In this document: positions 15,801 to 16,158 of the stretch, one piece after another
How the letters are laid out: each line of letters starts with the position of its first letter
Numbering within the stretch: position 1 is the first letter of the stretch
Assembly: GCF_036365525.1 (NCBI RefSeq)
Contig: NC_090419.1
Coordinates: 11,718,001 to 11,782,000, forward strand
Direction: 5' to 3'
Source of the DNA: Heterodontus francisci
Taxonomy: Eukaryota
Length of the DNA stretch: 64,000 nt
Translations under genes and position numbers: made by a program
The notes under the pieces: model-generated
What the model was told of the DNA's origin: nothing
Databases searched by the model: none
Seen by the model: the letters and a program-made list of their open reading frames with translations, nothing else

Positions 15801-16158
15801 ATCTGATTTTGAAACGACTTTTTAAGCAACTGTAACCGAACAATTTTCCTTCCTCCCGCAGGTTGGCATCAACTACCAGCCCCCGACGGTGGTGCCAGGG
15901 GGCGATCTGGCAAAGGTGCAGCGAGCCCTCTGTATGCTGAGCAACACCACCGCCATTTCCTTGGCTTGGACCCGCCTCAACCTCAAATTCGATAAGATGT
16001 ACGCCAAGCGGGCCTTTGTCCACTGGTACGTGGGGGAGGGGCTGGAGGAAGGGGAGTTCCAGGACGCACGGGAGGACATGGCCTCACTCGAGAAGGATTA
16101 CGAAGAGGTGGGCATCGATTCTTCCTCGCTGGACAGAAGGGCAGAGGAGGAAGAATAA
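12810..16158 (+). CDS. TUBA: Alpha-tubulin isotype A, copy A1 (450 aa; T36, Q40)
   Basis: join(12810..12812,13708..13930,14044..14192,14662..15342,15862..16158), all [17 protein letters not shown]...GGGTGSG...[21 protein letters not shown] at 16230. Confidence 0.95.
12860..13600 (+). repeat. Degenerate GG(A/G)ATCCACAG-core minisatellite-like sequence in intron 1 of A genes (shorter version in B intron 1)
   Basis: Recurrent GGAATCCACAGG, GGAGATCCACAGG, GGGATCCACAG, GGAATTCCACAGG at irregular short spacing. Confidence 0.55.

Follow-up and report, generated by a model that had tools for sequence, protein, structure and literature searches.

A shark array of alpha-tubulin genes encoding tails that lack the terminal tyrosine and bodies altered at TTL and vasohibin contact sites

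Contig C49 of the Heterodontus francisci genome hosts an alpha-tubulin array of at least 25 intact tandem copies, in which the acidic C-terminal tail carries a basic pair and ends without tyrosine. The missing tyrosine is in itself not novel, as it is known from TUBA4A, from a chicken testis isotype and from two more genes of this same genome. What is new is that all 25 genes also change Y108, H309, E386, H393 and E420, and the stronger argument resides in the body of the tubulin rather than in its tail. The reading proposed here, to which a probability of about 45% is assigned, is that the array encodes a subfamily made without tyrosine, which would stay outside the tyrosination cycle and provide bulk tubulin for the stable microtubules of sperm-forming cells. 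Escape of the array tubulin from tyrosination is probable; testis, deduced indirectly, is the favoured tissue of expression, with slightly less assurance. A search of open-access papers returned no description of an elasmobranch alpha-tubulin subfamily, of its tail or of its amplification, nor any case in which a tyrosine-less tail goes together with amplified genes and remodelled docking sites for the enzymes; subscription papers and supplements might report them.

Organization of the arrays

The window, i.e. the whole stretch of 64,000 nucleotides analysed, contains eight complete genes, in which two types, A and B, alternate. All eight have an exon 1 coding for the ATG only, GT-AG introns, a TATA box and a poly(A) hexamer. 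The features are listed below by window position.

4061..5567, minus strand: type-B copy truncated at its 5' end and reduced to exons 4-5, on the left side of the inversion centre
7376..8882, plus strand: type-B copy truncated at its 5' end and reduced to exons 4-5, on the right side of the inversion centre
12634..12752, plus strand: promoter of gene A1, with CCAAT at 12634 and 12710 and TATAAATA at 12745
12673-12687, plus strand: X-box-like 15-mer of A1, between the two CCAAT boxes
12810..12812, plus strand: start codon of A1, sole coding part of exon 1, GT donor directly after
13708..13930, plus strand: A1 exon 2, residue 40 being Gln instead of Lys
14044..14192, plus strand: A1 exon 3, with C108 (14139) and S109
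14662..15342, plus strand: A1 exon 4, with Q309 (15211) and the catalytic E254
15862..16158, plus strand: A1 exon 5, residues 353-450, with L386 (15961), T389, L393 (15982), K397, L413, Q419, D420 (16063) and S427
16111..16158, plus strand: coded C-terminal tail of A1, residues 436-450, followed by the stop TAA; RR codons at 16135-16140
16230..16235, plus strand: polyadenylation hexamer AATAAA of A1, 71 nt 3' of the stop
18397..21596, plus strand: gene B1, intact, 451 aa
26654..30806, plus strand: gene A2, intact, 450 aa, K40 retained
33052..36252, plus strand: gene B2, intact, 451 aa
40220..43585, plus strand: gene A3, intact, 450 aa
45821..49023, plus strand: gene B3, intact, 451 aa
52966..56326, plus strand: gene A4, intact, 450 aa
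58571..61768, plus strand: gene B4, open frame, 451 aa, N101K

The inversion centre lies at about 6.2-7.1 kb of the window, and the two truncated B copies, which lack exons 1-3, face outward from it. To the left of the window the array carries on along the minus strand. The complete window genes are distinct in all pairwise comparisons, and their differences are chiefly synonymous. A duplicate exon-1 end (ATG plus donor; window 17999-18001) is found in B1, B2 and B3, upstream of the start linked to the TATA box by about 400 nt.

When the genome was searched with exon 5, 62 of the 72 scored candidates were matches. Thirty-one matches of at least 95% are located on C49 and C1300, and one more on C463; canonical-type genes on C7, C51 and C25 were also matched. 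The 462 kb of C49 examined contain 25 complete genes (9 A, 7 B and 9 of a third type, C) arranged in two arrays, which also hold two truncated copies and fragments. Contig C1300 (27 kb) hosts four further genes, which may be a haplotype duplicate. The arrays have a MITF/TFE-family gene at their left and CCDC115 between them, as seen by scanning 117 of 264 long frames. The former is a compact gene flanking the first array (C49:11.67-11.68 Mb), the latter lies at about 11.908 Mb, and a zinc-finger gene and a 7TM receptor frame are found farther out. LINE-like frames (endonuclease plus reverse transcriptase), several of them long and one of 1252 aa, are interspersed between and beside the arrays. 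Ten beta loci were sampled, and no tandem beta-tubulin expansion emerged among the exon-5 search matches. A divergent beta-tubulin last exon at C32:49.13 Mb, with two tyrosines within the tail, is a candidate partner.

Array proteins are alpha-tubulins. They are 91% identical to the canonical C51 genes over residues 1-438, and the best solved-structure matches of exon 5 are alpha-tubulins (E about 4e-48). The GGGTGSG motif and the MREC start are present, and the catalytic E254 is kept, as are R402, E411, E414, E415 and E417. All 25 complete C49 genes have open frames and GT-AG introns, with no stops or frameshifts. Copies are 97-100% alike within types. The mean dN/dS within types is 0.07 (A), 0.05 (B) and 0.10 (C), and values of 0.09-0.21 were obtained in seven pairs taken between types or between distant C copies: the array genes are under purifying selection (dN/dS 0.05-0.21). 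A few copies deviate. N101, retained in 23 genes, is changed to Lys in B4 and in the next B copy (B5), which are possibly impaired as judged from this residue, and copy C2 features several odd changes. Lys40 is replaced by Gln in seven of the nine type-A genes; A2, one other A gene and all B and C genes keep Lys, and database members of the same clade have K, S or R at this position.

The C-terminal tail

Type-A tails occur in four copies in the window (starts at 16111, 30759, 43538 and 56279), type-B tails in six (8832, 21546, 36202, 48973 and 61718 on the plus strand, 4111 on the minus strand). The original prediction of a tail lacking a terminal Tyr/Phe and carrying RR at 444-445 holds for all these last exons, and tails are indeed identical in sequence within each type (4/4 A, 6/6 B). 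Both traits extend to the 25 complete genes of C49. Ungapped alignment to the canonical C51_c gives the expected changes, E441 to S or Y, G444 to R and E445 to R. The last of these replaces a glutamate in the stretch that had been named for polyglutamylation; four or five glutamates are left in the tail as possible sites of glutamylation.

The type-A protein has 450 aa and ends in Glu-Glu, as long as a detyrosinated canonical alpha-tubulin. The net side-chain charge from residue 436 onwards is -4 in A and -5 in B; it is -7 or -8 in 12 of the 13 C7, C25 and C51 genes of the H. francisci genome, the exception being C7_a, which has a short tail with charge -4 and one Arg and still ends in EEY. 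The suggestion that the protein is synthesised in a detyrosinated-like state with a less negative tail is thus correct in that no Tyr is coded and about half of the negative charge is gone. It goes too far if taken to mean lasting detyrosination, which the tail alone does not imply because TTL accepts tails ending in two glutamates (PMC3563685). The phosphorylation imagined for the SS(S/Y) stretch is weakly founded, since skates have S-A-D at those positions and the stretch is not conserved. The absence of a terminal Tyr/Phe is also less rare than was implied, as Ile and Cys are the last residues of two further genes of this genome. These two genes belong to a cluster of eight alpha-tubulin genes at C7:12.42-12.78 Mb, whose four divergent members have no Lys40 and terminate with I, F, C and F. 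The short one-Arg tail of C7_a resembles skate tails.

Addition of a Tyr codon by splicing was considered and rejected, no GT(A/G)AG donor being present at 16101-16400. Named proteins from other sharks and skates have the same tail design, with RK, KK or RR as the pair; their existence, together with the RR-containing, tyrosine-less tail of 25/25 genes, excludes chance or a sequencing slip.

AlphaFold models were made for the relative P0133, not for a window protein. The model has a mean pLDDT of 74, falling below 50 over stretches from H11 to the tail (an earlier one, at 36, was unusable). The tail is drawn as a helix at pLDDT below 50, and folding of such a putative helix onto L386 is neither supported nor excluded by the model.

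Distribution among elasmobranchs

The class was found in elasmobranchs only, in three protein searches, among the best 120 matches listed for each, and in two cluster look-ups; it spans sharks, skates and a sawfish. No chimaera record appears among the matches listed by the general protein searches. Tails with the basic pair were found in Carcharodon, Chiloscyllium, Heterodontus, Heptranchias, Amblyraja, Leucoraja and Rhinoraja. A sister group sharing the same H11-H12 signature but featuring varied tails includes Cetorhinus, Pristis, Scyliorhinus, Stegostoma, Mustelus, Rhincodon and others. Nineteen class members form a single clade (SH-aLRT 99) in a quick protein tree of 44 rows, in which four of the 25 array genes served as representatives. 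Some members are recorded in sharks and skates as 'tubulin alpha chain-like' (XP_032891359.1, XP_041037356.1, XP_067880357.1). They belong to the same subfamily as the array, have automatic names only, and no subfamily description was found for these records.

Tails were readable in 268 of the 324 proteins retrieved; those without a readable tail are 52 proteins outside the clade and 4 of its 43 members. None of 39 clade tails ends in Y or F, against 216 of 229 other alpha-tubulins, and two or more basic residues are found in 28/39 clade tails and in 0/229 others; comparison proteins are top matches rather than a random sample, and 90% clustering can hide members. Such a tail was not seen in the 229, bony fish included. 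The design L-D-basic-basic-x-EEEE is common to sharks and skates, the pair being exchanged conservatively (RR, RK, KK), and skates retain an acid (Asp) at 441.

The sister-type gene of H. francisci (C463:234718-250830) has a strongly basic lumenal loop at residues 31-44 and a tail ending in GV. Similar basic loops are found in Cetorhinus, Carcharodon, Scyliorhinus, Stegostoma, Pristis and others.

Changes at TTL and vasohibin contact sites

The array genes differ from C51_c at 24 positions in all 25 copies, and eight of these fixed changes fall within residues 381-438, in the outer H11-H12 region (p 0.008). TTL contacts alpha-tubulin through a core made of P175, E207, R308, H309, E386, R390, H393 and E433, with E441 and E449 as anchors in the tail; Arg66 of TTL meets both H309 and E386, and binding fell strongly when this arginine was reversed, and H393 stacks on Arg51 (PMC3563685). 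Residues contacting VASH2 are E433, H393, E386, Y108, E420 and E414 (PMC9750192). Relative to these published lists, the array changes three of eight TTL core contacts (H309, E386, H393), one of two anchors (E441) and four of six VASH2 contacts (Y108, E386, H393, E420). The replacements are H309Q, E386L/F and H393L, and the conservative E420D. Taken together, the core contacts amount to 11 distinct sites, and every one of the 25 genes has the same five of them changed. The hypergeometric probability of this overlap among 24 changes is 0.0001 over 438 positions, 0.003 over 220, 0.008 over 175, 0.03 over 130 and 0.09 over 100, in a post hoc test for which the sites were listed once the substitutions were known and positions were not filtered by solvent exposure.

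The same residues are replaced throughout the clade (E386 and H393 in 43/43 proteins, E420 in 42/42, Y108 in 34/35, H309 in 38/40), and L397K, M413L, S419Q and E420D are almost fixed. E433 is intact in this genome; it is changed in 14/42 clade proteins versus 2/269 others, the skate copies in this count being related and not independent.

Five other divergent genes of the genome, the two that end in Ile and Cys among them, have at most one of the 11 sites altered although they carry 42-58 changes, and the array pattern is therefore special. The Ile- and Cys-ending genes retain Y108, E386, H393 and E420, so that loss of the tyrosine alone does not erode the docking sites. The genome has TTL (C3) and two vasohibins (C9, C13); hence the state of the array is not due to loss of the enzymes.

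A tubulin proposed to stay outside the tyrosination cycle

CAP-Gly proteins and kinesin-13 are readers of the terminal tyrosine. Array proteins would pair with beta-tubulin and co-polymerise, and TTL would bind them poorly because of the changes in three of its eight core contacts and in one of its two anchors, so that the Glu-Glu end would seldom be tyrosinated. Vasohibin docking would be affected as well, at four of six contacts, on a protein with no tyrosine to remove. Microtubules rich in array tubulin would consequently draw fewer tyrosine readers and expose a less acidic tail, with glutamylation limited to the last four or five glutamates. Tandem amplification would boost output in one cell type, most likely in the male germ line. 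A free glutamate end is a preferred substrate of TTLL11 (PMC12366701), and terminal glutamates can be trimmed by CCPs (PMC4750924). Against an escape from tyrosination stand the Glu-Glu end, the conserved E449 and the five TTL core contacts that are kept, besides the conservative nature of E420D and the acid that skates have at 441. Two terminal glutamates are enough for tyrosination, in TUBA4A too, and length and composition of the tail are most likely immaterial to the reaction (PMC3563685).

A bolder and doubtful version of the proposal is that the array tubulin has a genetically fixed axoneme-like state, suited to the helical sperm of elasmobranchs. It would combine the absence of Tyr, the absence of a working dock for TTL and vasohibin, a half-neutralised tail and, in type A, mostly Gln in place of the acetylated Lys40. 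If true, vertebrates would possess a natural tubulin that does not enter the tyrosination cycle.

Tissue of expression

Amplified, inverted gene arrays tend to be germ-line genes, and Gln40 can be read as a mimic of acetyl-lysine. The 15-mer at 12673-12687 resembles an X-box. Of 16 aligned promoters, 11 retain this element, set between two CCAAT boxes, whereas it is deleted in five of the eight type-C promoters aligned; a relaxed form of the pattern is met in the region about 0.5 times per kb. A testis-specific chicken isotype with no coded Tyr is on record (cited in PMC9081340), and elasmobranch sperm have accessory helical columns (PMC11856307). The chicken precedent, the inverted array, the X-box-like element (a weak hint), Gln40 and the sperm columns may all be taken as hints for testis. 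The supplementary data of two papers on shark sex chromosomes contain no match to tubulin, TFE3 or CCDC115 (PMC12318234, PMC11406177).

Alternative readings

The array proteins might resemble TUBA4A also in their fate, being made without Tyr and tyrosinated later by TTL, while the changes of surface and tail would have been selected to adjust the binding of a motor, a MAP or a sperm accessory structure rather than to evade the enzymes. This is rather unlikely. The Glu-Glu end, E449 and the five TTL core contacts are those that such a protein would retain; moreover E414 and E420 contact KIF1A, and since the surface where eight of the 24 fixed changes cluster binds motors too, the changes need not concern TTL or VASH (PMC12109325). 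E441 and E443 touch the next beta-tubulin in the lattice, and this contact is another possible target of selection (PMC12885479). Later tyrosination is, however, hard to reconcile with the replacement of the residues that meet Arg66 and Arg51 of TTL, and the TUBA4A-type tails retrieved (e.g. P0205) are joined to an unchanged H11-H12 body. The same biochemistry may alternatively serve another cell type, either nucleated erythrocytes and thrombocytes, for the marginal band, or oocytes, as a maternal tubulin store. This is improbable, even though the Tyr-less alpha4A is essential in platelets (PMC6374996) and dogfish marginal bands contain four tubulin-region polypeptides (PMC2112168). The 3' UTRs are short and AU-rich and include CPE-like words in most A and C types, but B1 and C9 lack them, and such words are expected in AT-rich sequences; and neither A1 nor B1 has a GATA site closer than 250 nt to its start codon (the one in A1 lies at -266). 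A literature search for an oocyte-specific divergent isotype found nothing relevant.

If the isotype were minor and redundant, its tail might have drifted as selection relaxed and been spread by concerted evolution, which would account for the 97-100% likeness within types, as expected from gene conversion, for the varied tails of the sister subclade, and for N101K in two B copies and the odd changes in C2. This explanation is very improbable, being largely refuted by conservation across species. In addition to a dN/dS of 0.05-0.21, L-D-basic-basic-x-EEEE occurs in both sharks and skates, and L397K, M413L, S419Q and E420D are nearly fixed in the clade. A misassembly, or a collection of pseudogenes, is a scarcely credible explanation of the array. 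The suspicion might arise from tandem units that are almost identical, from the inversion and its two truncated copies, and from the four C1300 copies, perhaps a haplotype duplicate; yet the window genes all differ pairwise, mostly at synonymous sites, the 25 genes have no stops or frameshifts, TATA boxes and poly(A) signals are in place, and skates have multi-copy relatives.

A conserved subfamily that alters tail and docking surface together, as the preferred reading of a tubulin outside the cycle has it, would be a natural test of the purpose of the tyrosination cycle. The array substitutions would be a ready set for telling apart, on a single surface, the binding of TTL, of vasohibin and of motors. 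Amplification to at least 25 genes suggests that some cell type needs array tubulin in large amounts, a demand unexplained in shark biology.

Comparison with known alpha-tubulins

The array genes share with the TUBA1 genes of this genome (C51_a-d) the first three intron positions and the GTP-binding and catalytic residues. TUBA1 differs in its tail charge of -8, in its EEY end and at the 24 positions where none of the 25 array genes agrees with it. A gene on C25, presumably TUBA8-like as judged by the likeness of its tail to P0146/P0203, has like the array an intron at codon 352/353, and a MITF/TFE-family gene is found on both contigs; its EEY end and fully acidic tail are different, and it has none of the surface changes. 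In mammals this intron is a feature of the TUBA8/TUBA3 lineage. Here it is present in the array, C463 and C25, and absent from the C7 and C51 genes. Intron and neighbour are hints that the array and C25 are an ancient duplicate pair. Four-fold sites are saturated between the two (p-distance 0.65-0.69), as is the nucleotide tree, and in the protein tree the clade stands next to C7_a, with weak support (86), rather than next to C25. Synteny with the mammalian TUBA3 region was considered and is not supported, SMPD4 being on another contig and no Brix/IMP4 match being found on C49.

The coded EEY/EEF end that marks the tyrosination-cycle type (TUBA1/TUBA3) occurs in 0/25 array genes and 0/39 clade proteins. 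The divergent testis-specific alpha-tubulin of chicken (Pratt et al. 1987) is similarly devoid of a coded terminal tyrosine (via PMC9081340). The H11-H12 signature of the clade is present in 0/229 other proteins, and no bird protein retrieved has it. All mammalian alpha-tubulin isotypes depicted in PMC3563685 can potentially be tyrosinated. TUBA4A, like the array, is encoded without the terminal tyrosine and has a glutamate end; it keeps acidic TTL anchors, is close to the other isotypes and has no basic pair in the tail (PMC3563685, PMC6374996). The array has the two-Glu end of the TUBA4A type and neither the acidic anchor at 441 nor the intact TTL core (S/Y441, H309Q, E386L/F, H393L). It thus departs from TUBA4A in the change of E441, the added RR, the replacement of H309, E386, H393, Y108 and E420, and the extra intron at codon 352/353.
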